Assembly (NCBI GenBank): GCA_947589325.1
Contig: CANQAM010000010.1
Coordinates: 337-64,336, forward strand
Reading direction: 5' to 3'
Source: an uncultured Bacteroidales bacterium
Lineage (GTDB): Bacteria > Bacteroidota > Bacteroidia > Bacteroidales > UBA11471
Length of the DNA: 64,000 nucleotides
Under the pieces are notes generated by a model, which worked only from the letters and a program-made list of their open reading frames with translations, ran no database searches and was not told the DNA's origin. Positions 15,446 through 31,929 of the stretch are shown here, piece by piece. The position numbers and the translations under genes are program-made. Numbering within the stretch: the stretch's first letter is position 1; each line of letters begins with the position of its first letter.

Positions 15446-15626
15446 GTGTAGGTGATAAGATGTGAATAATGAAACAGGGGTGAAACGCGCTTTCCTAATC
15501 GGAATTTTCACGACCCCACCGGTGGAAGTCGGCTAAGCGAAAAAAGATTTTTTGAATAAGTGCGGTGTAAGCGAAAGTGCGATTTTTTCTCATTGTCCGG
15601 CGGGACTGTATATCCCGTTCAGGCGA

Positions 15627-15634
15627 CAAAGGTA
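15627..15634 (-). promoter_or_regulatory. -7 element, candidate promoter of the efflux operon
   Basis: TACCTTTG on the minus strand, about 180 nt upstream of the TolC start. Confidence 0.45.
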
Positions 15635-15720
15635 GGAAAAATAAAAACGTAGGCGGATTCTGTATTAACAAATATTATGATTTTAACGTGCTGCTGTTGC
15701 CGGCATGGAAGGAAGCAGGC

Positions 15721-15760
15721 AATAAAAAAGCAAGCCCTGTTTACACAAACAAGGCTTGCT
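15721..15760 (-). terminator. Intrinsic terminator of the gltB-gltD-asnB transcript
   Basis: Minus strand AGCAAGCCTTGTTT-GTGT-AAACAGGGCTTGCT then TTTTTATT; a second hairpin lies at 15763-15791. Confidence 0.85.
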
Positions 15761-15798
15761 CCGGATTTGCCGTATGGCGGCGGCAAAATCCTCTCTCT

Positions 15799-15815
15799 AT
15801 GCAACAGAGTAAAAA
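15799..15815 (+). repeat. Inverted third copy of the gltB-flanking element
   Basis: ATGCAACAGAGTAAAAA, 15/16 identical to ATGCAACAAAGTAAAA; lies 5-21 nt after the asnB stop in the opposite orientation. Confidence 0.7.
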
Positions 15816-15819
15816 AGCA

Positions 15820-17484
15820 TCAATAACTTTGTTTATGGACGTTCTTTACAGCGCGTCCCGACGGGTCGTTGAGTTTCTTGAACGACTCGTCCCATTCCAG
15901 TGCCGTGGCGGTGCTGCAAGCGACCGACCGTTCGGACGGCACGCTGCGTGCGGCGGCATCGGAGGGGAAGTGTTCGGCAAAGATGGAGCGGTAGTAATAC
16001 TCCTCTTTGTTCATCGGCGGATTGATGGGGAAGCGTTCGGCGGCGTGCGCCATTTCTTCGTCCGACACCCGCTCGGAGGTAATCTGTTTGAGTACGTCGA
16101 TCCAACTGTACCCCACACCGTCGGAGAACTGCTCTTTCTGACGCCATGCCACGCTCGCGGGCAAAATGTCCTCGAAGGCTTTGCGCAGTATCCATTTCTC
16201 CATTTTCCCGTCTTTCGCCATTTTGGCTTCGGGGTTGAGGCGCATGGCTGTGTCCATGAAAGTCTTGTCGAGAAACGGCACGCGCCCTTCGACGCCCCAT
16301 GCCGAGAGCGATTTGTTGGCACGCAGGCAGTCGTAGAGGTAGAGCTTGCTGATTTTGCGCACGCACTCTTCGTGAAACGCCCGCGCGTCGGGCGCTTTGT
16401 GGAAGTAGAGGTAGCCGCCGAATATCTCGTCGGCGCCTTCGCCCGAGAGTACCATTTTTATGCCCATCGACTTGATGACGCGCGCCAGCAGGTACATCGG
16501 CGTGGAGGCGCGCACCGTCGTTACATCGTAAGTCTCGATGTAGTAGATGACGTCGCGCAGGGCGTCGAGACCCTCCTCTATGGTGAAGTTGATTTCGTGA
16601 TGCACCGTACCGATGTGCGCGGCGACCTGACGGGCAGCTTCGAGGTCGGGCGCCCCTTTCAGCCCTACGGCAAAAGAGTGCAGCTGCGGCCACCAAGCGT
16701 CGGAGCGGCTGCCCGATTCGATACGCTTGGCGGCATACTGTTTGGCGACAGCCGACACGATAGACGAGTCCAGCCCGCCCGACAGCAGTACGCCGTAGGG
16801 TACGTCGCTCATCAGCTGGCGGCGCACCGCATCGCATAGTGCGGCACGCAGCGCCTCGCCGTCGGCGCCGTTGTCTTTTACGGCGTCGTACTGCTCCCAG
16901 TCGCGTTTGTACCAGCGCACCATTTTGCCGCTCCGGCTGTCGTAGTAGTGTCCGGGTAGGAAAGGTGCGTAGTCGGTACACCACCCTTCGAGCGCTTTCA
17001 ATTCCGATGCCACATAGGTGCGACCCTCGCTGTCGTGCCCCATGTAGAGGGGTATCACGCCTATGGAGTCGCGGGCGATGAGGTAGCGGTCGTTTTCTTC
17101 ATCGTACAGCGCGAAAGCGAAAATGCCGTTGAGGTCTTCGAAAAAGTCGATGCCCTTTTTCCGGTAAAGCGCCAAGATGACTTCGCAGTCGGAACCCGTC
17201 CGGAAAGAATAGTCCTTGCAGATGCCCTCGCGCAGGTCGCGGTGGTTGTATATTTCGCCGTTTACGGAGAGTATCAGTTTGCCGTCGGGGCTTTTCAGCG
17301 GCTGCCCGCCTGAGGCGGGATCGACGATAGAGAGACGCTCATGCGCCAGAATCGCTGATTTCCCCACGTATATGCCCGACCAGTCGGGCCCCCGATGACG
17401 GATTTTTTTTGACATTTCCAATGCCTGCGCACGCAGCTGCGCCGCATTCTCTTTTATATCGAATATGCCTACGATTCCGCACAT
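15820..17484 (-). CDS. asnB: Asparagine synthetase B (glutamine-hydrolysing)
   Basis: N-terminal MCGI (Ntn Cys), RHRGPDWSG, LLSGGLDSS, SGEGADE, EGRVPFLD. Confidence 0.97.
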   Translation of the reverse strand: MCGIVGIFDIKENAAQLRAQALEMSKKIRHRGPDWSGIYVGKSAILAHERLSIVDPASGGQPLKSPDGKLILSVNGEIYNHRDLREGICKDYSFRTGSDCEVILALYRKKGIDFFEDLNGIFAFALYDEENDRYLIARDSIGVIPLYMGHDSEGRTYVASELKALEGWCTDYAPFLPGHYYDSRSGKMVRWYKRDWEQYDAVKDNGADGEALRAALCDAVRRQLMSDVPYGVLLSGGLDSSIVSAVAKQYAAKRIESGSRSDAWWPQLHSFAVGLKGAPDLEAARQVAAHIGTVHHEINFTIEEGLDALRDVIYYIETYDVTTVRASTPMYLLARVIKSMGIKMVLSGEGADEIFGGYLYFHKAPDARAFHEECVRKISKLYLYDCLRANKSLSAWGVEGRVPFLDKTFMDTAMRLNPEAKMAKDGKMEKWILRKAFEDILPASVAWRQKEQFSDGVGYSWIDVLKQITSERVSDEEMAHAAERFPINPPMNKEEYYYRSIFAEHFPSDAAARSVPSERSVACSTATALEWDESFKKLNDPSGRAVKNVHKQSY

Positions 17485-17491
17485 GGCTTTC

Positions 17492-18922
17492 TTATTTTAA
17501 GGTCGATAAATAACGGTCGATAGCTGCGGCGGTTTTGCGCCCCGAAGCGATGGCGCGCACCACGAGACCCGCACCGTAGGAGGCATCGCCGGCGGCGAAT
17601 ACCTTTGCGACGGAACTTTTGTTGTCGCTATCGACTGCCACGTTTTTACGTCCGTCGAGCGTAACGCCGAGATTTTCGAGCAACCCTTCGTAAACGGGGT
17701 GTACGAATCCCATTGCCAAGAACACCATATCGACGTCGAGAATTTCGGTCTCGGCAGCCCGCTGCGGCGTCATGCGGCCGTTTTCGTCGGTCGTCCAAGT
17801 TACCGGAGCCACTTCGACCTGTTTCAATACGCCGTTTTCGCCGATGAAGCGCACGGTATCGAGGCTCCACCGCCGTTCGCAGCCCTCTTGGTGCGACGAC
17901 GATGTTTTGAGTATCTGCGGGTATTGCGGCCACGGCGTCGCCGGATTTTTATCGACCGGCGGTTTGGGCATGATTTCTATTTGCAGCACGCTTGCGGCGC
18001 CCTGTCGTATGGCGGTGCCCACGCAGTCCGAACCCGTGTCGCCGCCGCCGATTACCAGCACCCGTTTGCCTTTGGCGGAGATGCGTTCTTCCGGTGCGAC
18101 CTCTGTGCCGGCATTGACGCGGTTTTGCTGCTTCAGCAGTTCGAGCGCGAAGTAAACGCCTTTGAGGTCGCGCCCTTCGACGCGGAGGTCGCGCGGCTCG
18201 CCCGCCCCGATAGCCACGCATACGGCATCGTATTCGTCGAGCATTTTTTTCAATGCCTTCTTGTCAGCGCCTACCGGTGCGTTGCAGAAGAAAGAGATGC
18301 CCTCTGTTTCGAGCAGCGCCTGACGGCGGTCGATAACGTTTTTGTTGAGTTTGAAATCGGGTATGCCGAGCCGCAGCAGTCCGCCGATGCGTTCGTCTTT
18401 TTCAAAAACTTCGACGGTGTGCCCCTTGCGGTTGAGCTGGTTGGCGCAGGCGAGCCCTGCCGGTCCCGAGCCGATGACTGCCACCTTCTTGCCCGTGCGG
18501 GTGTGAGGCGGACACGCCACGACATACCCTTCGGAAAAGGCTTTTTCGATAATGGCGGCTTCGTTGTTGCGCACGGTTACCGGCGCATTTGCCGAGAGCC
18601 CCAGCACGCACCCTTTTTCACAGAGCGCCGGACAGACACGTCCCGTAAATTCGGGAAAGTCGTCGGTTTCCTGCAAGAGGCGGTAAGCCTCCCGCCAGTT
18701 TCCTTTATACACGGCGTCCTGCCATTCGGGCTGGCGGTTGCCCAGCGGGCAGTTCCAGTGGCAGAAGGGCACGCCGCAGTCCATGCAGCGCGAGGCTTGC
18801 GTGCGGCACTCTTCGTCGTGGAAGGTAAGCTCCACTTCGGCAAAATCGGTTTTTCGTTGTTGAACGGGACGGTATCCCGCTTCTTTTCTTCCTATGGTAA
18901 GAAATGCTTTCGGATTTCCCAT
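17492..18922 (-). CDS. gltD: Glutamate synthase small subunit
   Basis: RCMDCGVPFCHWNCP, GRVCPALCE, GSGPAG, IGGGDTGSDC, FAAGD. Confidence 0.96.
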   Translation of the reverse strand: MGNPKAFLTIGRKEAGYRPVQQRKTDFAEVELTFHDEECRTQASRCMDCGVPFCHWNCPLGNRQPEWQDAVYKGNWREAYRLLQETDDFPEFTGRVCPALCEKGCVLGLSANAPVTVRNNEAAIIEKAFSEGYVVACPPHTRTGKKVAVIGSGPAGLACANQLNRKGHTVEVFEKDERIGGLLRLGIPDFKLNKNVIDRRQALLETEGISFFCNAPVGADKKALKKMLDEYDAVCVAIGAGEPRDLRVEGRDLKGVYFALELLKQQNRVNAGTEVAPEERISAKGKRVLVIGGGDTGSDCVGTAIRQGAASVLQIEIMPKPPVDKNPATPWPQYPQILKTSSSHQEGCERRWSLDTVRFIGENGVLKQVEVAPVTWTTDENGRMTPQRAAETEILDVDMVFLAMGFVHPVYEGLLENLGVTLDGRKNVAVDSDNKSSVAKVFAAGDASYGAGLVVRAIASGRKTAAAIDRYLSTLK

Positions 18923-18929
18923 GATTCTT

Positions 18930-18950
18930 TTACTTTTTACTTTGTTGCAT
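18930..18950 (-). other. Candidate minigene MQQSKK* between gltB and gltD
   Basis: ATG CAA CAA AGT AAA AAG TAA; starts 2 nt after the gltB stop and ends 7 nt before the gltD ATG. Translation is unproven. Confidence 0.35.
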
Positions 18951-18953
18951 GAT
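18935..18953 (-). repeat. 19 bp direct repeat, copy at the gltB 3' end
   Basis: ATCATGCAACAAAGTAAAA, identical to 23452-23470. Confidence 0.9.
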
Positions 18954-21900
18954 TAATAGTCCCGTTCCACTTTCTCGATTTTCTGTTGCAGCGATTTTAT
19001 TTTCTCTTCTTGCAGCACTTTCTTGTACTCGATAGGCATCACTTTGATAAATTGCGATACGTATTCGTCCCAGTTTTCGAGCATACGTTTGGCGAGGGGA
19101 CTGTGCGTGTTCTCGTAGTGGTTGGCGATGAGGCCGTGCAGCTCTTTGTTGTCGGCGGCATCTTCGATGAGCGAAAGTTCCACCATCTCCATATTGCAGA
19201 AGAAGTCGAAATCGTCGTTCTTGTTCCACACGTAGGCGATACCGCCGCTCATGCCGGCGGCGAAGTTGCGACCCACTTTGCCGAGTACCACCGTGCGACC
19301 GCCCGTCATGTATTCGCAGCAGTGGTCGCCCACGCCTTCGACGACGGCTGTCGCGCCGCTGTTGCGCACGCAGAAACGTTCGCCCACGATGCCGTTGATA
19401 TAGACTTCGCCCGACGTGGCGCCATAGAGCAGCGTGTTGCCGGCGATGATGTTTTCTTCGGGTGCGAACGACGAGCCTTTCGGCGGAATGACGATGATTT
19501 TGCCGCCCGAGAGTCCTTTGCCCAAATAGTCGTTGGCTTCGCCCGAGAGGCAGAAGGTTACGCCGTGTGCGAGGAATGCGGCGAAGCTCTGACCTGCCGA
19601 GCCGATGAAGTTGCACCGTATCGTGTCGTCGGGCAGACCGGCGTTTCCGAACCGCGTGGCTATCTCGCCCGAAAGCATGGCGCCCGTCGAGCGGTCGGTG
19701 TTGCATATCGGCAGATGCAGCTCGATGGGCATCAGCGATTTAAGCGACGGAAGCGCTGCCTTTATCAGCCGCTGGTCTATCACGTCTTCGATTTGGTGCG
19801 CCTGCTCCTTGATTTTGCGGCAGGCATGTTTTTCAGCCTCTGCCGGACGGTAGAGTATGCGCGAAAGGTCGAGTTTGTCTATCGTGTGGTCGCCTACGGG
19901 AGGTTTCGGGAAAAGCAGGTCGGAGCGGCCGATGATGTCGTCCATTTTGGTGAAGCCCATTTCCGCCAGCCACTCCCGCACTTCCTGCGCGAGGAAGGTG
20001 AAGAAATTGACGAGGTATTCCGACCGTCCGAGGAAGCGTTTGCGCAGCTCTGCATTCTGCGTGGCGACGCCCACCGGACAGGTGTTCATGTGGCATTTGC
20101 GCATCATCACACAGCCCAAGACGATGAGTGCGCTGGTGGCAAATCCGAATTCTTCGGCGCCGAGCAGCGCTTGTATGATGATGTCGCGTCCGGTTTTCAG
20201 CTGTCCGTCCACTTGCAGCGTTACCTGCCCGCGCAAGTTGTTGAGTACGAGCGTCTGCTGCGTTTCGGAAAGACCTATTTCCGACGGCAGTCCGGCGTGC
20301 TTTATCGAGCTGGCGGGACTTGCTCCCGTGCCGCCTTCGCAGCCGCTGATGACAATCATGTCGGCTTTGGCTTTGGCTACGCCGGCGGCAATGGTGCCCA
20401 CGCCGCTCTCTGATACCAGCTTCACGCTGATGCGGGCGCGGGGATTCACGTTTTTCAAATCGAAAATGAGCTGTGCCAAGTCTTCGATAGAGTAAATGTC
20501 GTGGTGCGGGGGAGGCGAGATGAGCGAAATGCCCGGTATGGAGTGGCGGGTGCGCGCAATCACTTCATCGACTTTGAATCCGGGCAGCTGCCCGCCTTCT
20601 CCGGGTTTTGCGCCCTGCGCCACCTTGATTTGTATTTCGTCGGCATTCACCAAATATTCGGTCGTTACGCCGAAGCGTCCCGATGCTACCTGCTTGATGG
20701 CGCTGCGAGCCGACGTACCGTCTTCGCGCGGAACGAAGCGTTCGGCATCTTCGCCGCCTTCGCCCGTGTTGCTCTTGCCGCCCAGTTTGTTCATGGCGAT
20801 AGCCATAGCTTCGTGCGCCTCCTTGCTGATAGAACCGAACGACATGGCGCCCGTTACGAAACGGCGCGTTATGGCTTCGACAGGCTCTACCAGCGAAATA
20901 TCGATGGGGTTGCGTTTGAAGTCGAGGCGGTCGCGTAGGAATACCGGCTGCTCCTTGCCATCGACCATGGCGGTAAATTCTTTGAATTTCTTGTAGCTGC
21001 CCAGACGGGTCGCCAGTTGCAGGGTTGATATGGTTTCGGGATTCCATGCGTGGAATTCGCCGTTTTTGCGGAAGCTGTAAATGCCGTTGTGGTTGAGGTA
21101 CTGTTCTTTGTCGATGTAAGCCTCCGCATGGAATTTGACGATGTCGCGGTAAATCTCTTCGAGCGTTACGCCGCCTATTTTGGAAGTCGTGCCGCAGAAA
21201 TAACGGTCTATCAATTCCTGTGAAATGCCGACAGCCTCGAACAGCTGGGCGCCCCAATAGCTGCCTATCGTGGAGATGCCCATTTTGGAGATGACTTTCA
21301 ACAATCCTTTGTTCACCGCTTTCACGTAATTTTTTTCGGCGGTGTGGTAGTCGAGCTGTATCTGTTTGTCGTTTACCAACTGGTTGATGACGGCAAAAGC
21401 CATGTAGGGGTTTACCGCGCTGGCGCCATAGCCTATCAGCAGGGCGAAGTGCATTACTTCACGAACCTCGCCGGTCTCTACGACGATAGCTGTCTGCACA
21501 CGCATACGCTTGGCGATAAGGTGGTTGTGTACGGCGGAGACGGCGAGCAGCGACGGTATGGGCACCTGCGTTTCGTCAGCCTCCTTGTCGGAGAGTATGA
21601 TGTAGTTGAAGTCGGCTTTCACCGCCTGTTCGGCTTCGGCGCAGAGGCGGTCGATACCCTCTGCCAACCCTTGTGCGCCGGAATTGAGGTCGAACGTCAT
21701 CGACAGCGTTTTGGTGCGGAAGCCCTTGTAGCGCAGGTTGCGCAGAATATCGAGGTCGGCGTTGGTGATGACGGGCGATTTGATATTGACCATCTTGCAC
21801 AGCTCCGGCGACTGCACTAACAGATTTTTGTTGATGACGCCGATGTAGTTGCCGAGCGACATCACCAACTCTTCGCGAATGGGGTCGATAGGCGGGTTGG

Positions 21901-23467
21901 TTACCTGCGCGAACTGTTGCCGGAAGTAGTGGAACAGCAGCTGCGGCTTCTGCGAAAAGAGAGCCAGCGGCGTGTCGTTGCCCATAGAGGCGATAGGCTC
22001 TTTGCTTTCGGTGGTCATGGGTATGATGATGCGCTCCACATCTTCTTTGTGGTAACCGAATGTATGCAGGTGAGCCGCATAGTCGGGCACGTCGTAGCGC
22101 ACGGTGCGACCCGAACTGATGGTGTCGAGTTTCACGCGGTTTTTGGATAGCCACTCCCGATAGGGGTATGCCGAAGCCAGCTGCTCTTTCAACTCTTCGT
22201 CGCGATAGATTTTACCTTTCTCGGTGTCGATGAGAATCAGTTTGCCGGGTTGCAGACGTCCTTTTTCTTTGATGTCGGCGCCGTCGAACGGCAGAACGCC
22301 CGCCTCCGAAGCAATGACCATCATATCGTTTTGCGTGATGAGGTAGCGGGCGGGGCGCAGACCGTTGCGGTCGAGCATACCGCCGGCGTAGCGACCGTCG
22401 GAAAAGAGCAACGTGGCGGGACCGTCCCACGGCTCCATGAGAATACTGTGGTATTCGTAAAACGCTTTCAGATTCTCGGAAATGGGGTTTTTCTCGTTGA
22501 AACTTTCGGGAATCATCATGGAGAGTACATGGGGCAGGCTCATGCCCGACATCATGAAAAATTCGAGTACGTTGTCTAACGACGCGCTGTCGCTCATTTC
22601 GGGTTGCACGATAGGTTTCAGTGCGTCGATGCCTACGCCGAGCACGTCGGGCTGCAACACGCTTTCGCGCGCCTCCATCCATTTGCGGTTGCCCCGTATG
22701 GTATTTATTTCGCCGTTGTGCCCCAGCAGGCGGAACGGCTGCGCCAGACTCCACGTGGGGAACGTGTTGGTGCTGAAACGCGAGTGTACCAGCGCCATGC
22801 CGCTGGTGAAATAGGGATTTATCAGGTCGAGGTAGTAGTAGCGTAGTTGCAGCGACGTAAGCATACCTTTATATACAAGGTTCCGGTTCGAGAGCGAAAC
22901 GATGTAGAAATCTTTTTTCAAGGCGATATCCGAGTGCAACACTTTTGCCTCTATTTTTTTGCGCAGAACGTACAGGGCGCGGCTCAACGCCGTTTCGTCC
23001 ATTTCGTTCGGGGCGGTGATGAAAAGCTGCTTTATGGCGGGTTCGGTGGCTGCCGAGCCTTCGCCGAGTATTTCGCTGTTCACCGGCACGTCGCGTATGG
23101 TGAGCAGTTGCAGTCCGGCGCCGGAAATTTCGCTTTCGATGATAGCGATGAGGGCTTCTTGGTCGGCGGTCTCTTTGGGGAGAAAGACAAGCCCTGTACC
23201 GTAATGACCTTTTTCGGGTACGGGGATTCCTTGCAGGAGAATGAACTCGTGCGGAATCTGCACCATGATGCCCGCGCCGTCGCCCGTTTTGGGGTCGGCG
23301 CCTTCCGCCCCGCGGTGATTCATGTGTTCGAGCACCTGCAAAGCGTTTTCGACGATTTGATGCGACTTGCCGCCGTGAATGTTCACCAGCAGACCGACAC
23401 CGCAGGCGTCGTGTTCGTAATCGGGGCTGTACAGACCTTGTTCTTGTAATCTTTTACTTTGTTGCAT
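18953..23467 (-). CDS. gltB: Glutamate synthase large subunit
   Basis: EHDACGVG (Ntn Cys), HSRFSTNT, HNGEINT, GAMSFGS, KVAQGAKPGEGGQLPG, CVMMRKCHMNTCPVGVATQ. Start set at MQQSKR. Confidence 0.97.
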   Translation of the reverse strand: MQQSKRLQEQGLYSPDYEHDACGVGLLVNIHGGKSHQIVENALQVLEHMNHRGAEGADPKTGDGAGIMVQIPHEFILLQGIPVPEKGHYGTGLVFLPKETADQEALIAIIESEISGAGLQLLTIRDVPVNSEILGEGSAATEPAIKQLFITAPNEMDETALSRALYVLRKKIEAKVLHSDIALKKDFYIVSLSNRNLVYKGMLTSLQLRYYYLDLINPYFTSGMALVHSRFSTNTFPTWSLAQPFRLLGHNGEINTIRGNRKWMEARESVLQPDVLGVGIDALKPIVQPEMSDSASLDNVLEFFMMSGMSLPHVLSMMIPESFNEKNPISENLKAFYEYHSILMEPWDGPATLLFSDGRYAGGMLDRNGLRPARYLITQNDMMVIASEAGVLPFDGADIKEKGRLQPGKLILIDTEKGKIYRDEELKEQLASAYPYREWLSKNRVKLDTISSGRTVRYDVPDYAAHLHTFGYHKEDVERIIIPMTTESKEPIASMGNDTPLALFSQKPQLLFHYFRQQFAQVTNPPIDPIREELVMSLGNYIGVINKNLLVQSPELCKMVNIKSPVITNADLDILRNLRYKGFRTKTLSMTFDLNSGAQGLAEGIDRLCAEAEQAVKADFNYIILSDKEADETQVPIPSLLAVSAVHNHLIAKRMRVQTAIVVETGEVREVMHFALLIGYGASAVNPYMAFAVINQLVNDKQIQLDYHTAEKNYVKAVNKGLLKVISKMGISTIGSYWGAQLFEAVGISQELIDRYFCGTTSKIGGVTLEEIYRDIVKFHAEAYIDKEQYLNHNGIYSFRKNGEFHAWNPETISTLQLATRLGSYKKFKEFTAMVDGKEQPVFLRDRLDFKRNPIDISLVEPVEAITRRFVTGAMSFGSISKEAHEAMAIAMNKLGGKSNTGEGGEDAERFVPREDGTSARSAIKQVASGRFGVTTEYLVNADEIQIKVAQGAKPGEGGQLPGFKVDEVIARTRHSIPGISLISPPPHHDIYSIEDLAQLIFDLKNVNPRARISVKLVSESGVGTIAAGVAKAKADMIVISGCEGGTGASPASSIKHAGLPSEIGLSETQQTLVLNNLRGQVTLQVDGQLKTGRDIIIQALLGAEEFGFATSALIVLGCVMMRKCHMNTCPVGVATQNAELRKRFLGRSEYLVNFFTFLAQEVREWLAEMGFTKMDDIIGRSDLLFPKPPVGDHTIDKLDLSRILYRPAEAEKHACRKIKEQAHQIEDVIDQRLIKAALPSLKSLMPIELHLPICNTDRSTGAMLSGEIATRFGNAGLPDDTIRCNFIGSAGQSFAAFLAHGVTFCLSGEANDYLGKGLSGGKIIVIPPKGSSFAPEENIIAGNTLLYGATSGEVYINGIVGERFCVRNSGATAVVEGVGDHCCEYMTGGRTVVLGKVGRNFAAGMSGGIAYVWNKNDDFDFFCNMEMVELSLIEDAADNKELHGLIANHYENTHSPLAKRMLENWDEYVSQFIKVMPIEYKKVLQEEKIKSLQQKIEKVERDY

Positions 23468-23470
23468 GAT
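23452..23470 (-). repeat. 19 bp direct repeat, copy spanning the gltB start codon
   Basis: ATCATGCAACAAAGTAAAA, identical to 18935-18953. Confidence 0.9.
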
Positions 23471-23487
23471 GATATTGTTTTTTTGAA

Positions 23488-23560
23488 ACCTGCCCGACAA
23501 ACCGAATGAATGCCCAAAAAATTCGGTTTGCCGGAACAGGTCGTCTCCTTATGCAAGGAG
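23488..23560 (-). promoter_or_regulatory. Two stem-loops in the glnA-gltB spacer
   Basis: ACCTG..CAAACCGAAT / ATTCGGTTTG..CAGGT (23488-23541) and CTCCTT-ATGC-AAGGAG (23545-23560); no U tract on the coding strand. Confidence 0.55.
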
Positions 23561-23576
23561 TTGGTAAGAATTGAAT

Positions 23577-25763
23577 TTAACGAATGAATAACAGTTCTCT
23601 GTATTTGGGGAGAGGCCACATCTCGTTATCGACGATAAGTTCGAGTTTGTCGATGTGGTAGCGTATCTCGTCCATCAAGGGCACCACCGTGTCGTGGTAG
23701 GCAATGGCTTTTTCGCGTTCGTCGGTGATTTTGTTCGCCACTTTGCGGGCATCGACCAATGCATCGACTTTGGTGATTACCGTAGAAATATGTTTCGATA
23801 CCTTGCGCACCACCTTCGTATCTTCTTCCGAAAGCGTTTTGGCTTCATCGGCGGGGAAGAGGGCGTTGAATTTGGCGATGTTGTCGAGCAGTATCGACTG
23901 GTAGCGCGAGGCTACGGGCACGATGTGGTTCATTGCCAAATCGCCGAGTACGCGGGCTTCGATTTGTATCTTTTTGGTGTAGGTTTCCCATTTCACCTCG
24001 CAGCGCGACTGCAATTCCACTTCGCTCATCACCTTCGTGTCGGTGAAGATTTTTACATTCTTGGGACGCAGGTAGGCATCGAAATTCAGAGGTACGCTCG
24101 TTTCGCAGTCGAGACCGCGGCGGGCGGCTTCGGCTTTCCATTCCTCGCTGTAACCGTTGCCGTCGAAGCGTATGGCTTTACACTCTTTTATCAGTTTGCG
24201 TATCACGGTGAAGATAGCTTTTTCTTTCTGCGTACCCGCTGCGATGAGGCTTTCGACTTCGGCATAGAAGTCGTTGAGCTGGGCGGCTACGGCGGTGTTG
24301 AGCACAATCATGGCGGCGCCGCAGTTTGCCGACGAGCCGACAGCGCGGAATTCGAAGCGGTTGCCCGTGAAGGCGAAGGGCGACGTGCGGTTGCGGTCGG
24401 TGTTGTCGATGAATATTTCGGGAATATGGGCTACGCCGATTTTGATGCCGGCTTTCGGGTCCATCTTGATAGCTTCATCGGTCGTTGCCGATTCGAGTTT
24501 GTCGAGCACTTCCGAAATCTGTTTTCCGAGAAATACCGAAACGATGGCGGGAGGCGCCTCGTTCGCACCCAGACGGTGGGCGTTGGTAGCCGAGCAGATA
24601 GAGGCTTTCAGCAGGTCGTTGTGTTTGTAAACCGCCATGAGCACGTTTACGAGGAAGGTAACGAATTGCAGGTTTTCCATACCGTTCTTGCCCGGAGCGA
24701 GAAGGTTTACGCCGGTGTTGGTGCCCATCGACCAGTTGTTGTGTTTTCCCGAGCCGTTGATGCCCTTGAAAGGCTTTTCGTGCAGAAGCACGCGGAAGTT
24801 GTGGCGGCGGGCCACTTTCTTCATCAGCGACATGAGCAGGAGGTTATGGTCGTTTGCCAAGTTGGTTTCCTCGAAAATGGGAGCTACCTCGAACTGGTTG
24901 GGTGCCACTTCGTTGTGGCGGGTCTTCACGGGAATGCCGAGTTTCAGACACTCTCTTTCGAGGTCGGACATGAACGCGAGCACGCGGGTGGGAATGGAGC
25001 CGAAATAGTGGTCTTCGAGCTGCTGGTTTTTCGCGCTGTCGTGTCCCATGAGGGTACGACCGGTGAGCACGAGGTCGGGACGGGCGGCATACAGAGCCTC
25101 ATCGACCAAGAAGTATTCCTGTTCCCACCCGAGATAGGAGAATACTTTGGTTACGTTTTCGTCGAAGAAATGGCATACTTTCACGGCAGCTTCGCTCATG
25201 GCGGAGATAGCTTTCAGCAGCGGGGTTTTGTAGTCGAGCGCTTCGCCGGTGTAGGAGATGAACACGGTGGGAATACAGAGGGTGTCGCCTACCACGAATG
25301 CGGGCGACGAGGGGTCCCATGCCGAATATCCGCGAGCCTCGAACGTGTTGCGGATTCCGCCGCTCGGGAAGCTCGATGCGTCCGGTTCCTGTTGGATAAG
25401 AATTTTACCGGAAAATTCCTCGATGACGGCGCCTTTTTCAAACTCGATGAACGAGTCGTGTTTTTCGGCGGTGCCGCCCGTAAGAGGTTGGAACCAGTGG
25501 GTATAGTGGGTCGCGCCTTGTTCCATAGCCCATTGTTTCATGCCGGTAGCCACGCCGTCGGCATATTCGCGGCTCAGCGGCGTGCCGTTGTCGATAGCGT
25601 CGATGATGGCATTGTAAGTTCTTTTGGAAAGATACTTCGCCATGGCGGCGCGGTTGAAAACGTGTTCGCCGAAAAATTCCGACGGACGTTTTTCTTCCGG
25701 TTCGAGTACGACGGCTTTGCGTTTGAAAGCCTCGTCCAGCAATTTGAATCTAAGTGTACTCAT
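23577..25763 (-). CDS. glnA: Glutamine synthetase type III
   Basis: 728 aa; THWFQPLTG..AEKHDSF, EPDASSFPSGG, HNEVAPNQFE, GINGSGKHNNWS, RLGANEAPP, WPLPKYRELLF. Confidence 0.95.
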   Translation of the reverse strand: MSTLRFKLLDEAFKRKAVVLEPEEKRPSEFFGEHVFNRAAMAKYLSKRTYNAIIDAIDNGTPLSREYADGVATGMKQWAMEQGATHYTHWFQPLTGGTAEKHDSFIEFEKGAVIEEFSGKILIQQEPDASSFPSGGIRNTFEARGYSAWDPSSPAFVVGDTLCIPTVFISYTGEALDYKTPLLKAISAMSEAAVKVCHFFDENVTKVFSYLGWEQEYFLVDEALYAARPDLVLTGRTLMGHDSAKNQQLEDHYFGSIPTRVLAFMSDLERECLKLGIPVKTRHNEVAPNQFEVAPIFEETNLANDHNLLLMSLMKKVARRHNFRVLLHEKPFKGINGSGKHNNWSMGTNTGVNLLAPGKNGMENLQFVTFLVNVLMAVYKHNDLLKASICSATNAHRLGANEAPPAIVSVFLGKQISEVLDKLESATTDEAIKMDPKAGIKIGVAHIPEIFIDNTDRNRTSPFAFTGNRFEFRAVGSSANCGAAMIVLNTAVAAQLNDFYAEVESLIAAGTQKEKAIFTVIRKLIKECKAIRFDGNGYSEEWKAEAARRGLDCETSVPLNFDAYLRPKNVKIFTDTKVMSEVELQSRCEVKWETYTKKIQIEARVLGDLAMNHIVPVASRYQSILLDNIAKFNALFPADEAKTLSEEDTKVVRKVSKHISTVITKVDALVDARKVANKITDEREKAIAYHDTVVPLMDEIRYHIDKLELIVDNEMWPLPKYRELLFIR

Positions 25764-25806
25764 TTCTTTTTTACTTTATGTTTGAGAGTTGTTTATTTCA
25801 TATAAA

Positions 25807-25832
25807 GAGGGGAGAGGGTAGTACCCCTCCCC
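25807..25832 (-). terminator. GC-rich hairpin between amt and glnA (weak terminator or stabiliser)
   Basis: GGGGAG.GGGT..ACCC.CTCCCC stem followed by TCTTTAT on the minus strand. Confidence 0.45.
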
Positions 25833-25838
25833 GTAAAA

Positions 25839-27212
25839 TCAGTTGTAAGCCGATTCGCCGTGTTCGTAGATGTCGAGTCCCTCTTCTTCGATGCGTTTGG
25901 GAACGCGCAGACCGTGAATGAGGTCGAGAACCTTGAAAATGACGAATCCCATGCCGGCAGCCCAAGCTCCTACGACGACTGCACCGAATGTTTGGGCAAG
26001 AAAGAAATTCCAGCTTCCGCAGTAGAAAAGTCCGTTCGTCGTGCAGAAAAGACCGGTGAGAATCGTGCCGAGAAATCCGCATACGCCGTGTACCGACGAT
26101 GCGCCCACAGGGTCGTCGATTTTGAGTACGTGGTCGATGAAATCGACGGCGAGTATCATTACGACGCCGCAAATGATGCCGATGATTACGGCACCGCCCG
26201 GCGATACGAGGTCGCACCCAGCCGTGATGCCCACCAGTCCTGCCAAGATGCCGTTAAGCGTCAGCGACAGGGAGGGTTTGCCGTATTTTATCCAGCTGGT
26301 AACCAACGAGGCGAATCCGCCGGCACAGGCTGCCAGATTGGTTGTCAGGAATACGTGCGAAATGGCGGTATAGTTACCTTCGCCCGAAGCTGCCAGCTGC
26401 GAACCAGGGTTGAATCCGAACCACCCGAACCAGAGAATGAACACGCCGAGTGCGCCGAGCGTGAGGTTGTGTCCGGGTATGGCGTGCGACTTGCCCTCTT
26501 TGTATTTGCCGAGACGGGGCCCGAGAATGGCTGCCCCCACGAAAGCGATGGCGCCGCCTACCAAGTGTACGACGGTGGAACCGGCGAAGTCGTGAAACGT
26601 GATGCCGAAAGTGCGCATCATGAAGCTCCCTTCATCGCCGTTCATCAACCAGCCGCCGCCCCACGTCCAGTGTCCGGAAACGGGATAAATCAACACGCTG
26701 ATACATACGGTGTAAATCAAGTACATCGAAAATTTGGTGCGTTCTGCCATAGCTCCCGAAACAATCGTGGCGGAGGTGGCGCAGAACACGGTCTGGAAAA
26801 TGAGGAATCCCTCGATGGGCAGACCGTTGTCGATGATTTCCTCCATCTTCGCCAAGTCGAAGAAGTGAGGCATGCCCACGAAAGCTCCGATGCCGAACAT
26901 CAGGCTGAATCCGATAAGCCAGTAGAGCAGTGAACCGAGCATGAAATCTATAAAGTTTTTCATCAAAATGTTCGCCGTGTTTTTCGTGCGGGTGAAGCCG
27001 GCTTCCACCAAGGCGAATCCGGGTTGCATGAAAAACACCAGCATGGCGGCGAGCAGCATCCATACCACGTCGAGCGACGTTGCCAGCTCGGCAATCGACA
27101 GCGGAGCAGCCGCCGTTTCTTCCGCAGCGGCGACCGCCTCTTCTTGTGCGGCGGCTCCGGAAGTAAAGAGCGTAATCGTCATCAAAACGATGAACATACC
27201 TATTTTTTTCAT
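25839..27212 (-). CDS. amt: Ammonium transporter
   Basis: FFMQPGFAL, DFAGSTVVH, WFGWFGFNPGS, NGILAGLVGITA, DDPVGASSVHG, GLDIYEHGE. Confidence 0.97.
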   Translation of the reverse strand: MKKIGMFIVLMTITLFTSGAAAQEEAVAAAEETAAAPLSIAELATSLDVVWMLLAAMLVFFMQPGFALVEAGFTRTKNTANILMKNFIDFMLGSLLYWLIGFSLMFGIGAFVGMPHFFDLAKMEEIIDNGLPIEGFLIFQTVFCATSATIVSGAMAERTKFSMYLIYTVCISVLIYPVSGHWTWGGGWLMNGDEGSFMMRTFGITFHDFAGSTVVHLVGGAIAFVGAAILGPRLGKYKEGKSHAIPGHNLTLGALGVFILWFGWFGFNPGSQLAASGEGNYTAISHVFLTTNLAACAGGFASLVTSWIKYGKPSLSLTLNGILAGLVGITAGCDLVSPGGAVIIGIICGVVMILAVDFIDHVLKIDDPVGASSVHGVCGFLGTILTGLFCTTNGLFYCGSWNFFLAQTFGAVVVGAWAAGMGFVIFKVLDLIHGLRVPKRIEEEGLDIYEHGESAYN

Positions 27213-27251
27213 AACCTTTTTCTTCTTAAAAATAATACTTGAAAGTGATAC

Positions 27252-27608
27252 CTATTTCTCTTGTTCCGCGTTGTAGAGGGCGATGTCGCCTCGGTCGGCG
27301 GTGCGTATGCGCACGGCATCGTCGATAGGGACGATGAAGATGCGTCCGTCGCCTATCTCGCCTGTGTAGGCGGCTTTCATGATGGCTTGCACCGTCTTTT
27401 CCACGTTTTTGTCGCGCACCACGATGGAAATCATCGTGCGCTCGATATAGCTCGTGTCATAGACCACACCGCGGTAGATGCGCCCCTGACGGGCTTTGCC
27501 CACGCCCCGCACATCGTAGTACGAAAACCACTCGATGTCGGCTGCGAGCAGAGCATCTTTCACGTCTTCAAATTTTGTCTTGCGGATAATTGCTTCAATC
27601 TTTTTCAT
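27252..27608 (-). CDS. glnK: Nitrogen regulatory protein P-II (GlnK-type position next to amt)
   Basis: MKKIEAIIR, T-loop GRIYRG, TGEIGDGRIF, AVRIRT. Confidence 0.9.
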   Translation of the reverse strand: MKKIEAIIRKTKFEDVKDALLAADIEWFSYYDVRGVGKARQGRIYRGVVYDTSYIERTMISIVVRDKNVEKTVQAIMKAAYTGEIGDGRIFIVPIDDAVRIRTADRGDIALYNAEQEK

Positions 27609-27620
27609 TTTACCTTAAAT

Positions 27621-27632
27621 TTATTTCTGCAT
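27621..27632 (-). other. Candidate minigene MQK* between the porin and P-II genes
   Basis: ATG CAG AAA TAA; 4 nt after the upstream stop, 12 nt before the P-II ATG. Confidence 0.25.
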
Positions 27633-27636
27633 GATT

Positions 27637-28389
27637 TTAGAACGAAACTCCGAATACCAAGAATACATCGTCGTTGGCAGGGGAGAAGATGGCTTCGACC
27701 GACAGCGTCGTGCCGAAGTTTTTGAAAAGGGTGAACGTTTTCGCCACTTTCGCCGAAACGTCCATCACATTGAAACTGCTTGCATACATACCTTTCCACG
27801 GGGTGATGCCCAAGCCTACGCTGCAATCGACGACTCCCTTGATGTCGAAGCCGTAATCCAAGTCGATGTAGGTCGAGAAATGCTGTTTGCCGGAATCGTT
27901 TTTGTCGAACGGACAATATACCACCGTGTTCCACCCTATCGTCAGCGGGAACGAACAGCTCTCGCCGAAGTCGTAGCCGGCGGAGGCTTCGAGGTAGTGG
28001 CAGTTTCCGGTTTCGCCTTTCTCTTTTTTCCATGCGCTGAAATAGGCATTACCCTCGCCGGTCCACCAATAATCGGTAAGCCCTATCGAAAAGCCTTTTA
28101 TCGCATAGGAAACCGAGAGGTCGAACTCTTTGGGTGCATCGACCAGTCCGGCAAACGAGGTGCTGCCCCATACGCCTACCGAAAAGCCGGCGGCGTCGAA
28201 CGACAGATAGGGTTGAATGCTCGCTCCCGTCTGATAAGTGCCGCGCCATACGTAGGTACTTACGAGGTCGGCTCCTACCGACAGGGTAAAGCCTTTGTCC
28301 GCATTCAGGGTTATGTCTTCGGCTTTTGCGTTTGCCATACCGAGCAGCAGCGATGCCATAAGCGTTAATGAAATTGTTTTTGCTTTCAT
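27637..28389 (-). CDS. Putative outer-membrane porin (TorF/Gcw_chp-like)
   Basis: Signal peptide; DLVSTYVWRG..Q...SIQP, KEFDLSVSY; beta strands; terminal F; directly upstream of P-II and amt. Start set at MKAKTISL. Confidence 0.65.
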   Translation of the reverse strand: MKAKTISLTLMASLLLGMANAKAEDITLNADKGFTLSVGADLVSTYVWRGTYQTGASIQPYLSFDAAGFSVGVWGSTSFAGLVDAPKEFDLSVSYAIKGFSIGLTDYWWTGEGNAYFSAWKKEKGETGNCHYLEASAGYDFGESCSFPLTIGWNTVVYCPFDKNDSGKQHFSTYIDLDYGFDIKGVVDCSVGLGITPWKGMYASSFNVMDVSAKVAKTFTLFKNFGTTLSVEAIFSPANDDVFLVFGVSF

Positions 28390-28404
28390 GATTCTCTTTT
28401 TTGT

Positions 28405-28517
28405 GTATTTGAATATCCTGTTTGAAAACCTGTTTGTGATAAGGTGCCGGTGCGGCACCCGATTATCCGATAGTTCTCTCTGTTGTCCCCGCGAAGGGGC
28501 TCTGTGTATTCAAATAC
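28405..28517 (-). promoter_or_regulatory. Structured leader or twin operator upstream of the nitrogen cluster
   Basis: GTATTTGAATA (28405-28415) is the exact inverse of TATTCAAATAC (28507-28517); internal hairpins GGTGCCG/CGGCACC (28443-28459) and CCCC/GGGG (28487-28499). Confidence 0.5.
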
Positions 28518-28587
28518 TTAAAAAAGCAATCTTCTTTCGTTTTCATAACCAATCTTTTTTACCTAACCTTTTACCTTTTTACCTATA

Positions 28588-29820
28588 TTATATCTTCCAA
28601 TTTTTTATCCGTTCCACCGCTTCTTCGACTTCGCTGCGTTCGCCGAATGCCGTCAGTCGCAGATAGCCCTCTCCGCCCGGACCGAATCCTACGCCGGGCG
28701 TACCCACGACGTGGCATTCGTAAAGCAGCCTGTCAAAGAATTTCCACGAGTCGATGCCGCCGGGCGTCTTCAACCAGATGTAGGGGGCGTTGATGCCGCC
28801 ATACACTTCGAGCCCTGCTGAGGCAAGCCCTTCGCGTATGATGCGGGCGTTCTCCATGTAGTAGGCGATGTTGGCGCGTATCTCTTTCTGTCCCTGCGGG
28901 GTGTATATCGATTCTGCCGCCCGTTGTACGATATAGGCAGTGCCGTTGAATTTCGTGCTTTGCCGGCGGTTCCACAAGCGGTTGAGGTCGGCACGCTCGC
29001 CGTTGAGGCGGAATGCCCGCAGCTCTTTGGGTACGACCGTGTAGCCGCAGCGCAGTCCCGTGAATCCTGCCGTTTTCGAGAAGCTGCGAAATTCGATGGC
29101 AACCTGTTTGGCTCCCCGTATTTCGTATATGCTGTGCGGCACGTCGCTCTCGCTGATGAAGGCTTCGTAGGCGGCATCGAAAAGAATCAGTACATCGTTT
29201 TTCAAAGCGTAATCGACCCACTTTTTCAACTCTTTTTTGGTGAGAGTCGTTCCCGTCGGGTTGTTGGGGTAGCAGAGATAAATGATGTCGGGAGTTTCTT
29301 TCGGCAGCTCCGGAATGAACTTGTTTTCGGCGCAGCAAGGTATGTAGGCGATGTCGCTCCACCGTCCGTCGGGCAGCAGGTTGCCGGCGCGGCAGCCCAT
29401 CACGTTGGTATCGACGTAAACGGGATACACGGGGTCGGTTATCGCCACGCGGTTTTCTTTGCTCAATATGTCGCCGATGTTTCCCGTGTCGCTTTTGGCA
29501 CCGTCGCTGATGAACACTTCCGTCGGGTCGATGTGTACGCCGCGCGTTTCGAAGTCGTGTTTGATGATGGCGTCGATGAGAAACCGGTAGCCCTGTTCGG
29601 GACCGTATCCGTGAAAAGTGGCTGCATCGCCCATTTCATCGACGGCTTTGTGCAGGGCGGCGATGACGGTCGGCGGCAGCGGACGGGTTACATCGCCGAT
29701 TCCCAATCGTATGATGCGGGCTTCGGGGTGTATGATTTTATAAGCGTTCACTTTCCGTGCTATCTCCGTGAAAAGGTAGCTTTCGGTGAGCTTCAAAAAT
29801 TGTTCGTTTACTAATGCCAT
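28588..29820 (-). CDS. dapL: LL-diaminopimelate aminotransferase
   Basis: [46 protein letters not shown] (PLP Lys), TPGVGFG. Confidence 0.95.
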
Positions 29821-29827
29821 AATGCTT

Positions 29828-29845
29828 CTATCTTTTTCGTTGCAT
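29828..29845 (-). other. Candidate minigene MQRKR* between dapF and dapL
   Basis: ATG CAA CGA AAA AGA TAG; 6 nt after the dapF stop, 7 nt before the dapL ATG. Confidence 0.25.
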
Positions 29846-29851
29846 AAATTT

Positions 29852-30691
29852 TTATTGCCCCAAGAGCCATTCTCCTTCGAAAACCGTTTCGGCGCCGCCG
29901 CTCATATATACATGATTGTCGGCGGCGTTCCATTCGATGTCGAGGTCTCCGCCCAAGAGCCGTAAGACCGCCCGACGGGCGGTAAGTCCGTTGAGTACGG
30001 CAGCCACGAGGGTGGCACACGCACCCGTGCCGCAGGCGAGCGTCTCGCCGGCGCCGCGTTCCCACACCCTCATGCGTATTGCTTCAGGCGATACGATTTC
30101 GGCAAACTCGATGTTGCAGCGTTCGGGAAAAAGCTCGTGCCGTTCGGCAGCTGCGCCGACGGCGTGTATATCGATGTCGTCCAGACGGGGAACGAATATC
30201 ACGGCGTGCGGATTGCCCATCGATACGCACGTCATGCGATAGGTCGTCGTCCCGACGGTCAGAGGCACGTTTATCGCCCGCTCGCCCGACAGGGCTACCG
30301 GTATGCGGCGCGGTTCCAAAACGGGTTCGCCCATATCCACACGCACCGAAACGACTTTTCCCGCTTTCACCGTCAGCCGCAGCACTTTGATGCCCGCTGC
30401 CGTTTCGAGCGTTATCTCCTCTTTGTCTGTCAATCCGTTGTCATATACATATTTGCCGATGCAGCGCGAGGCATTGCCGCACATTTGCGCTTCGGAGCCG
30501 TCGGCGTTGAACATGCGCATACGGAAGTCCGCCCGTTCCGACGGCAGTATCAACACCAGTCCGTCCGAGCCTATTCCGAAATGCCGATCACTCATGCGCA
30601 CGGCGAGCTTCTCCGGTGCGGCAACTGCTTCTGCCATACCGTTTATATAAACGTAATCGTTTCCGGCTCCGTGCATCTTGGTGAATCTCAT
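29852..30691 (-). CDS. dapF: Diaminopimelate epimerase
   Basis: [41 protein letters not shown]. Confidence 0.97.
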
Positions 30692-30754
30692 AAGCAAATT
30701 TTCATTTTGAAATCGAAAGTTGTATTTATCTTTCGTTTTGCTAATTATTTTCGA

Positions 30755-30786
30755 CAAAAATATACATAATGTAAACACGAAGCAAA
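30755..30786 (-). promoter_or_regulatory. Canonical promoter for dapF-dapL
   Basis: Minus strand TTTG, 20 nt spacer, TATTTTTG. Confidence 0.7.
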
Positions 30787-30969
30787 ATTTGCAAGAAAAT
30801 ATTTTGAAATAGTTATCATACTTTCATATTGTAATATTAAAACTTGTAATGATAATAAATTGTAACCGTAAGTTGTTTTATGCTTTCATTTTGAATGTGA
30901 CGAAAAATAATCAAGTGTAATTTCGACAATAATTCTTTTCCGAACGAAACGTCATAATGAAAGTTTCGC

Positions 30970-30977
30970 TATCTTTG
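30970..30977 (+). promoter_or_regulatory. -7 element for the transporter gene
   Basis: TATCTTTG 25 nt upstream of ATG 31003. Confidence 0.55.
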
Positions 30978-31002
30978 CAGCCGATTTTTACGATTTTTTC
31001 CG

Positions 31003-31929
31003 ATGTTGCAAAAGTTGAAAGTGTATATGCTGCCGGTGGCGATGATACTCGGTGCGCTGCTCTACCGCCCTATCACGTACCTTAACGATATGTTTCCCTT
31101 CATTACGCAGCTGCTTATTTTCGCCATGTTGCTGATAACTTACTGCCGCCTGTCGCTGCGCCACCTGCATATCGAACGGCTGCACGGTTGGCTGCTGGCG
31201 ATACAGGTTGTCGGCGGGCTGGGCATCTATTTTTTGTTGTGCGGCATCGACCCATTGGTGGCGGAAGGCACGCTGATATGCGTATTTGCCCCGACGGCGA
31301 CGGCAGCAGCCGTCATCACGCAGATGCTGGGCGGCAGTCTTGCTTCATTGGCGACATACAGTTTGGTAAGCAATATGGCGGTAGCGGTTCTTTCGCCGAT
31401 TATCTTTTCGTTTATCGGCGTCCATACCGACATCGATTTTCTCACGTCGTTTCTTATCATTTGCCGGCAGGTGCTGCCGCTACTCATTCTGCCGTTCGTC
31501 GTTGCCATTCTCATGGGAAAATTCCTGCCGCGAGCGCACGAGGCGTTGAGTCGGAGCCAAAGTCTGTCGTTCTATTTGTGGGCGGTGTCGCTCACTTTCG
31601 TCATGGGACGCACCGCCTCGTTCATTATGGCACAAGGCGGCGACAACCTGCGCGAAGAGTTGCTGCTGGCATTGTTCTCGCTGATTGTCTGCGGCTTGCA
31701 ATTCATTTTAGGAAAAGTTATCGGACAGCGTTACGCCAACCGCATTGCCGGCGGGCAGGCGTTGGGGCAGAAAAACACCGTGCTGGCGATATGGATGGCG
31801 CTTACCTACGTACACCCGCTCGCCTCGATAGGTCCTGCCTCGTATGTCGTGTGGCAGAATATCGTGAACAGCACCCAGCTCTGGATAAAAAACAAACGGG
31901 AAAAAGCGGCGCATACATCTGCTGAATAG
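31003..31929 (+). CDS. Bile acid:sodium symporter-like membrane transporter
   Basis: About 10 TM segments; APTATAAAVITQMLGG and GQALGQKNTVLAIW motifs. Confidence 0.7.
   Translation: MLQKLKVYMLPVAMILGALLYRPITYLNDMFPFITQLLIFAMLLITYCRLSLRHLHIERLHGWLLAIQVVGGLGIYFLLCGIDPLVAEGTLICVFAPTATAAAVITQMLGGSLASLATYSLVSNMAVAVLSPIIFSFIGVHTDIDFLTSFLIICRQVLPLLILPFVVAILMGKFLPRAHEALSRSQSLSFYLWAVSLTFVMGRTASFIMAQGGDNLREELLLALFSLIVCGLQFILGKVIGQRYANRIAGGQALGQKNTVLAIWMALTYVHPLASIGPASYVVWQNIVNSTQLWIKNKREKAAHTSAE

Follow-up and report, generated by a model that had tools for sequence, protein, structure and literature searches.

Introduction

GlnZ, a small RNA (sRNA) of enterobacteria, stems from the untranslated 3' region (3' UTR) of glnA and depends on Hfq. 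OppZ and CarZ of Vibrio cholerae are likewise Hfq-dependent sRNAs derived from 3' UTRs; both are autoregulatory, and RNase E has been shown to excise them (Hoyos et al. 2020, PMC7398697). In Bacteroides thetaiotaomicron, the sRNA GibS pairs with start-codon regions through a conserved, unstructured 5' seed and does so without Hfq, and 21 UTR-derived sRNA candidates have been described in the same organism (Ryan et al. 2020, PMC7366714). Post-transcriptional control of nitrogen assimilation is essentially uncharted in the Bacteroidales, a dominant gut order without Hfq, ProQ or initiation based on Shine-Dalgarno (SD) sequences. Here we analyse a 64,000-nucleotide stretch from an uncultured Bacteroidales bacterium (GenBank assembly GCA_947589325.1, contig CANQAM010000010.1, positions 337 to 64,336; hereafter the window), in which the 3' UTR of asnB contains a candidate regulatory RNA.

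This asnB gene stands at the end of a minus-strand run of nitrogen genes, namely dapF, dapL (the gene for LL-diaminopimelate aminotransferase), a TorF-like porin gene, P-II, amtB, a gene for a 728-aa glutamine synthetase (glnA), gltB, gltD and asnB itself. Several short spacers of the run contain minute open reading frames (mini-ORFs), most of them beginning Met-Gln, in which a reading made from the sequence alone had seen a possible glutamine-sensing device. We favour a different explanation, in which the mini-ORFs before gltD and dapL, together with the first codons of gltB, would serve as pairing sites for antisense sequence in the asnB 3' UTR; we give this a probability of about 60%. The class that suits the locus best would be that of an Hfq-independent autoregulatory 3' UTR RNA resembling OppZ and CarZ.

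The asnB 3' untranslated region

The element and its presumptive seed are located as follows, in coordinates of the window.

15719..15819, minus strand: asnB 3' UTR element of about 100 nt, consisting of an unpaired conserved stretch, hairpin 1 and an intrinsic terminator; candidate regulatory RNA
15797..15818, minus strand: seed, GCUUUUUUACUCUGUUGCAUAG, effectively single-stranded, 3 nt past the asnB stop

The element begins 1 nt past the asnB TGA (15822-15820), and we found that it folds at -39.9 kcal/mol (z = -4.4). The mini-hairpin that the seed could form by itself is weak and insignificant (-4.2 kcal/mol, z = -0.5). After the seed come hairpin 1 and then the terminator, which has a 16-bp stem (15762-15727) followed by a T run (a U run in the RNA); a hairpin and then an intrinsic terminator behind the seed is the usual build of a 3' UTR-derived small RNA. 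None of the covariance models of Rfam 15, those of the glutamine riboswitches included, matched either strand of positions 15000-31500 at E values up to 1.

Conservation was assessed within one genus, the only one of its family, for which 11 species-level genomes, all metagenome-assembled genomes (MAGs) of uncultured Bacteroidales from rabbit gut and other animal samples, were compared. Seven of these carry the gene cluster. Two of them, G008 and G009, have about 99% protein identity to the window and are uninformative, which leaves G003, G010 and G006 (about 88% protein identity) and G004 as the informative genomes. Six of the seven genomes with the cluster (G000, G008, G009, G003, G010 and G006) share a block of 34 nt, GCTTTTTTACTCTGTTGCATAGAGAGAGGATTTT, without a single difference, while the coding DNA that flanks it is only about 81% identical; the version in G004 has one base change and one U fewer. 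The structured parts vary in a manner that preserves pairing: the terminator shows two compensatory pairs, and the inner stem of hairpin 1 reads GCCG/CGGC, CCG/CGG or CUC/GAG, depending on which of three lineages is considered, and all three versions fold.

An sRNA of the OppZ/CarZ kind is recognised by its location in the 3' UTR of the parental operon, where it ends at the intrinsic terminator of the mRNA, by a conserved and accessible seed that matches initiation regions of its own operon, and by dependence on Hfq. The first two are found here: the element occupies the 3' UTR of the last gene of its operon and shares that gene's terminator, as OppZ and CarZ do, and its seed is both accessible and complementary to starts within the operon. 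The third is not, as no Hfq domain was detected in the 91%-complete genome by a search whose controls did match. It follows that the element could act in the manner of OppZ and CarZ and yet not be an Hfq-class sRNA. A second difference concerns release, since processing by RNase E has been demonstrated for OppZ and CarZ whereas here only an RNase E/G homologue is present in the genome. The presence of this homologue together with the absence of Hfq fits Bacteroides sRNAs such as GibS.

Predicted pairing with gltB, gltD and dapL

The seed is the reverse complement of a motif, RTGCAAC followed by an A-rich tail, which is conserved at the gltB start, before gltD and before dapL. It makes 17 of 18 pairs with the site upstream of gltD and pairs comparably with the gltB start. 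Seen from gltB, the start sequence of this gene is copied over 19 nt at the gltD-upstream site (ATCATGCAACAAAGTAAAA), and an inverted copy lies 3 nt past the asnB stop. The predicted pairing partner of the seed can be written AUGCAAC(A/C)A(A)AGUAAAAA and is found at the gltB start, 28 nt before gltD and 25 nt before dapL. When the complement of the 18-mer seed was searched in the whole genome (2.35 Mb, 51% GC, 61 contigs), only three places came within two mismatches of it, one in the gltD spacer, one at the gltB start and one in the element itself, against 0.35 matches for shuffled cores at the same threshold.

Duplexes between the seed and initiation regions were evaluated in 24-nt sliding windows, and 1615 genes were ranked by the result (mean -8.9 kcal/mol, sd 2.8); plain RNAduplex on 66-nt windows was dropped because of loop-rich artefacts. 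The predicted sites are the following.

23450..23468, minus strand: target site 1, the gltB start codon and first 5-6 codons, CAUGCAACAAAGUAAAAGA; -18.0 kcal/mol, rank 10 of 1615
18930..18951, minus strand: target site 2, in the gltB-gltD spacer, which holds the mini-ORF MQQSKK-stop; -19.5 kcal/mol, rank 5 of 1615
29823..29846, minus strand: target site 3, in the dapF-dapL spacer, which holds the mini-ORF MQRKR-stop; -15.7 kcal/mol, rank 27 of 1615

The initiation region of P-II reaches only -9.1 kcal/mol (rank 699 of 1615). The gltD duplex spans positions -29 to -8 relative to the start and so includes the A-rich positions -11 to -14. At gltB, the target codons fall within a propeptide, because the catalytic Cys is residue 22 and is preceded by 21 propeptide residues.

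Pairing at these three sites is retained in the informative genomes. The gltB duplex has -19.1 to -21.6 kcal/mol in G003, G010, G006 and G004, the gltD duplex -18.1 to -21.5 kcal/mol in the four other lineages, and the dapL duplex -21.1 in G003, -21.9 in G010, -19.9 in G004 and -16.7 kcal/mol in G006, which together gives a range of -16.7 to -21.9 kcal/mol. The six initiation regions of the cluster other than these three stay at -5.7 to -11.5 kcal/mol. The gltB start itself carries the motif as ATGCAACAAAGTAAAAG in the window and as ATGCAACACAGTAGAAAA in G003, and in G003 and G010 the gltB leader lengthens the helix (CUAUGCAACA:UGUUGCAUAG). Where ATG has changed to GTG, the terminal pair is preserved as G.U. 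The dapL site and the gltD site of G004 have come to share almost the same sequence (ATGCAACAAAGTAAAAAATA[GA]).

The sequence-only reading had offered, as an alternative to translation, that ATGCAR is an untranslated binding motif. For the gltB, gltD and dapL sites this part of it agrees with what we find, with the qualification that the partner would be an RNA and, as far as can be seen, no protein; it does not extend to the frames before P-II and glnA, which look like chance. A protein partner was considered in its own right. On that account a nitrogen regulator would bind the 18-bp motif as DNA, at three or four sites of either orientation. In its favour, that many copies, one of them inverted, occur in a single nitrogen locus, and the nitrogen regulators of the Bacteroidales are poorly known. 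However, the motif is not palindromic, and every copy is part of transcribed DNA, being placed at a start codon, within an intercistronic spacer of 30 nt or behind a stop codon. The inverted copy belongs to the invariant 34-nt block, to which a terminator is joined and also a hairpin that folds in spite of its variation between lineages, and these are features of RNA. An A-to-G change that keeps G.U pairing is also expected for RNA and not for DNA. We therefore think a DNA site unlikely.

The repeats could also be functionless relics of duplication or recombination around gltB, with the mini-ORFs being chance occurrences in AT-rich spacers. The direct repeat does bracket gltB exactly, not every member of the genus has the cluster, and for the frames before P-II and glnA the behaviour is indeed that of chance occurrences. 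Neutral relics, however, should decay as the neighbouring spacers have, yet the seed is invariant, and the three sites stay complementary across lineages whose other intergenic DNA is hardly alignable, which makes this an improbable account of the seed and its partners. Finally, the inverted copies (18-mers with 2 mismatches) flank 3.1 kb and might serve as recombination sites for inversion of the gltD-asnB segment. This segment has the same orientation in all seven cluster-bearing assemblies, an inversion would break the operon, and the adjacent RNA features would be left unexplained; of such a switch we are highly sceptical.

Outside the cluster, the strongest matches to the seed are at two amino-acid biosynthesis genes, ilvB (C24:9343; -21.3 kcal/mol, rank 1) and serC (C14:25326; -20.7 kcal/mol, rank 3). 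We rejected both as additional targets, for the corresponding sites in sister species fall to -6.6 to -13.3 kcal/mol; they would be either species-specific targets or chance matches, and their loss of pairing in sister species provides a negative control for the conservation test. A genome-wide RTGCAAC regulon was rejected as well, as other occurrences of the motif near starts share neither the A-rich tail nor a theme.

A long plus-strand ORF runs antisense to asnB (15577-16839), with 420 aa if read from a GTG and 346 aa if read from the ATG (15799) that the inverted motif copy contains. It was discarded as a gene: counted from this ATG, it varies between 8 and 346 codons among relatives, and its variable length marks it as a shadow frame of asnB.

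The intercistronic mini-ORFs

Four mini-ORFs had been reported from the sequence, with their spacings, and all four are present on the minus strand.

18950-18930, minus strand: gltD-site mini-ORF MQQSKK-stop (ATG CAA CAA AGT AAA AAG TAA), which begins 2 nt past the gltB TAA and closes 7 nt ahead of the gltD ATG
27632-27621, minus strand: P-II-site mini-ORF MQK-stop (ATG CAG AAA TAA), which begins 4 nt past the porin stop and closes 12 nt ahead of the P-II ATG
29845-29828, minus strand: dapL-site mini-ORF MQRKR-stop (ATG CAA CGA AAA AGA TAG), which begins 6 nt past the dapF stop and closes 7 nt ahead of the dapL ATG
25801-25793, minus strand: glnA-site start-stop MK-stop (ATG AAA TAA)

GltB itself begins MQQSKRLQEQ, again as had been reported. 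What had been built on these frames is a relay in which translated mini-ORFs pass terminating ribosomes onward at a rate set by the supply of Gln-tRNA. In the sister species, neither the start codon nor the frame is conserved. Upstream of gltD, G003, G010 and G006 have GTG CAA CCA GTA AAA AAG TAA, and G004 has ATG CAA CAA AGT AAA AAA TAA. Upstream of dapL, the frame in G003 (GTG CAA CAG AAA AAG CAA AAG ATT) has no stop and is fused in frame to dapL, that in G010 reads ATG CAA CAG AAA AAA GAG TAA, the sequence in G006 (AGG CAA TAG) is without a start codon, and G004 has ATG CAA CAA AGT AAA AAA TAG. G004 thus encodes MQQSKK-stop at both the gltD and the dapL site, closed by TAA or TAG. The P-II and glnA mini-ORFs are absent from G003, G010 and G006, where the spacer or leader sequence is not conserved, and the sequences suggest that MQK-stop (27621..27632) and MK-stop (25793..25801) are probably chance frames, the former lying outside the system. 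The Gln-rich N-terminus of GltB is not conserved either (MQHSRKPEEQ in G003). Beyond the genus, no mini-ORF was found at the gltB-gltD junction in other families, and a pattern scan of metagenomes for this junction returned only the G003-type spacer and unrelated junctions without mini-ORFs.

We also asked how common such frames are in the genome. Genes were called with a simple caller of our own, based on codon usage and start context (1622 genes), and the 290 co-directional spacers of 15-60 nt were compared with shuffled versions. ATG triplets are depleted in these short spacers (63, against 98 +/- 9 when shuffled), and a complete ATG mini-ORF occurs in 21 of the 290 (24.7 +/- 4.4 when shuffled). 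Mini-ORFs as a class are not enriched, and the genome makes no general use of relay frames. MQ mini-ORFs are a separate matter: four are found in the 290 short spacers where 0.87 are expected (P about 0.01), and they occur in three of the four short spacers within the nitrogen cluster as against one of 286 elsewhere (hypergeometric probability about 4e-6, calculated post hoc). With three of the four MQ mini-ORFs of the genome in one cluster, the original observation is real and non-random. MQ mini-ORFs are rare and concentrated in the cluster, and mini-ORFs in general are at or below chance.

Start codons in this genome are preceded by A-rich sequence at -11 to -14 and by A at -3 and -6, with no SD sequence, in agreement with the Bacteroidia-type context described by Baez et al. 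2019 (PMC6847099); the same avoidance of ATGs in short spacers has been reported for Flavobacterium (PMC6847099). Measured against this context, the ATGs of the mini-ORFs lie at the 8th-17th percentile of real starts and at the 84th-94th percentile of internal ATGs. A good context may not be required for re-initiation.

Taken together, these observations make a glutamine-sensing relay very unlikely. Its spacing would be suitable, with 2-6 nt between the upstream stop and the mini-ORF and 7-12 nt from there to the following ATG, the nitrogen cluster has most of the MQ mini-ORFs, a 6-codon gltD frame with Gln in second place occurs in every lineage once GTG is accepted as a start, and the ribosomes of Bacteroidia, with no need of an SD sequence, could use an exposed AUG (PMC6847099). 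Yet the ATG is lost to GTG or AGG, the dapL frame is fused in G003, the P-II and glnA frames are missing in sister species, the start contexts are weak by the standard of real starts, ATGs are avoided genome-wide in short spacers and the junction in other families has no mini-ORF. The relay also leaves the invariant complementary stretch behind asnB unexplained. Leader peptides of the trpL and hisL type are similar in being short ORFs ahead of biosynthetic genes, but in those attenuators the sensed codon comes in runs, the frames are conserved and there are alternative terminator or antiterminator hairpins. Here the frames are unstable, each contains only 1-2 Gln codons, and alternative hairpins are not possible because the spacers are 28-31 nt long.

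A simpler role in translation would have the mini-ORFs serve as plain stepping stones, translated for coupling without sensing anything, in which case the 3' UTR RNA, if active, would gate their starts. The same spacing and partial conservation of the frame speak for it, as does the twofold MQQSKK-stop of G004 with its stop kept. Against it stand the missing start at the dapL site of G006, the missing stop there in G003 and the lack of any general use of such frames in the genome. Selection on the peptide is also inseparable from selection on pairing, because nucleotide identity between the sites is so high. We rate this role as unlikely.

Under the antisense explanation the mini-ORFs would be incidental to the imitation of the gltB start. 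An exact complement to the seed, AUG CAA CAG AGU AAA AAA, reads MQQSKK; AUG or GUG followed by a Gln codon is what the UUGCAU end of the seed dictates in its complement. Translation of the mini-ORFs may then happen by accident.

Proposed mechanism

If the asnB tail acts as an antisense RNA, it could do so either within the full gltB-gltD-asnB mRNA, of which asnB is the last gene, or as an RNA of about 100 nt after endonucleolytic release. It would anneal to the gltB, gltD and dapL initiation regions and block ribosome loading. At gltB the RNA would cover the start codon; at gltD and dapL it would cover -29 to -8 and with it the A-rich positions -11 to -14, on which the ribosomes of Bacteroidia rely instead of an SD sequence (PMC6847099). 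The contact at dapL would have to be made in trans, because dapL is in another transcription unit, from which the terminator behind amtB separates the operon. Glutamate synthase would thereby come under negative feedback, together with co-regulation of the glutamate-consuming DapL step of diaminopimelate synthesis.

Such a circuit would share with OppZ and CarZ a seed that pairs with the initiation regions of its own operon, including that of an internal cistron (oppB there, predicted to be gltD here), and negative feedback, again predicted here; CarZ, too, comes from a glutamine-using pathway. It would differ in having three sites, one of them in a second operon (dapL), and in a pairing that is longer, at 17-20 bp, much like that of other sRNAs from Bacteroides; in sequence they are unrelated. 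GibS shares the setting in the same phylum without Hfq or ProQ, the conserved unstructured seed, the extended pairing over the starts of metabolic mRNAs (predicted here) and the intrinsic terminator. It differs in being intergenic, independently transcribed and responsive to N-acetylglucosamine, whereas the element described here is a 3' UTR feature of one uncultured genus, with predicted targets in its own operon. With GlnZ the likeness is a resemblance only, in that the 3' UTR of a nitrogen-assimilation mRNA gives a base-pairing regulator; parent gene, targets and phylum are all different, and GlnZ requires Hfq.

Several points weigh against this proposal. No promoter-like element was seen by eye ahead of the seed, so that release would need processing. 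Within the single uncultured genus compared, the independent lineages number only about four, which makes covariation statistics thin. The 1622 genes, and likewise their start sites, come from a crude caller. The three sites rank within the top 0.3-1.7% of the genome by hybridisation energy and are not unique in this. Repression as the sign of regulation at gltD and dapL is a prediction. In addition, no lineage has lost the 6-codon gltD frame if a GTG start is allowed, and a peptide or a role in re-initiation at the gltD site may exist, as the MQQSKK-stop at two sites of G004 might suggest.

A more elaborate version would combine both ideas: the RNA tail would control three initiation regions in two operons, the copied starts would be decoy or stepping-stone mini-ORFs, and the RNA would turn the hand-over of ribosomes from one cistron to the next on and off, in a phylum without SD pairing. 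We grant this a small chance. Should the antisense explanation be true, the locus would offer, at the level of sequence, a clear example of an operon outside the Proteobacteria that regulates itself through a 3' UTR RNA, and it would illustrate how such circuits may expand when copies of a start-codon region are placed in further spacers. For annotation, the lesson is that conserved-looking intercistronic mini-ORFs can mirror an RNA seed that contains CAU.

Distribution within and beyond the genus

Four genomes of the same genus (G001, G002, G005 and G007, two of them 99% complete) are without gltB, dapL and asnB, and the covariance model of the full element found it in none of these four. On gene content, the cluster has been gained or lost within the genus. 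G007 has kept only a near-identical terminator hairpin (L101 1255-1300), beside a flavodoxin gene where G006 has the whole element. In other genera, the covariance model did not find the element among 301 Bacteroidales genomes or among species representatives of the Genome Taxonomy Database (GTDB); outside matches in the 301 genomes score 24-35 bits, too weak to call, and the one examined (that in G007, of the same genus) is the terminator hairpin only. An analogous circuit was sought in six other families by pairing the region downstream of gltD with each genome's own gltB start, and none was significant (z -2.3 to +0.7).

Other features of the locus

The assembly of G004 breaks at the gltB-gltD junction, where the ends of contigs C85 and C213 overlap by about 117 nt; the break possibly results from the repeated motif or from low coverage.

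The leader of gltB contains a further hairpin (23494-23534, minus strand) of 13-14 bp. Compensatory changes affect 6 of its 14 pairs, across only four lineages; its loop, GGGCAUU, is invariant, and CAGGUU is conserved in its 3' flank. It has neither a U run nor an Rfam match. An RNA element of its own, with a regulatory or stabilising role ahead of gltB, is one possibility. The 198-nt gap between dapL and the porin gene (28390-28587) has no Rfam match.

A GC-rich, terminator-like hairpin (25832-25809, minus strand) lies directly 3' of amtB, and the MK start-stop is located in its U-rich tail, from which it follows that glnA probably has a transcript start of its own.

The transporter and porin genes themselves are divergent. 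When this species group is compared with G003, G006 and G010, amtB (25839-27212) is only about 34% identical and the porin (27637-28389) about 47-50%, while P-II, glnA, gltB and dapL around them are 87-95% identical. This points to a cassette of transporter and porin that has been swapped, while synteny holds in the rest of the cluster.

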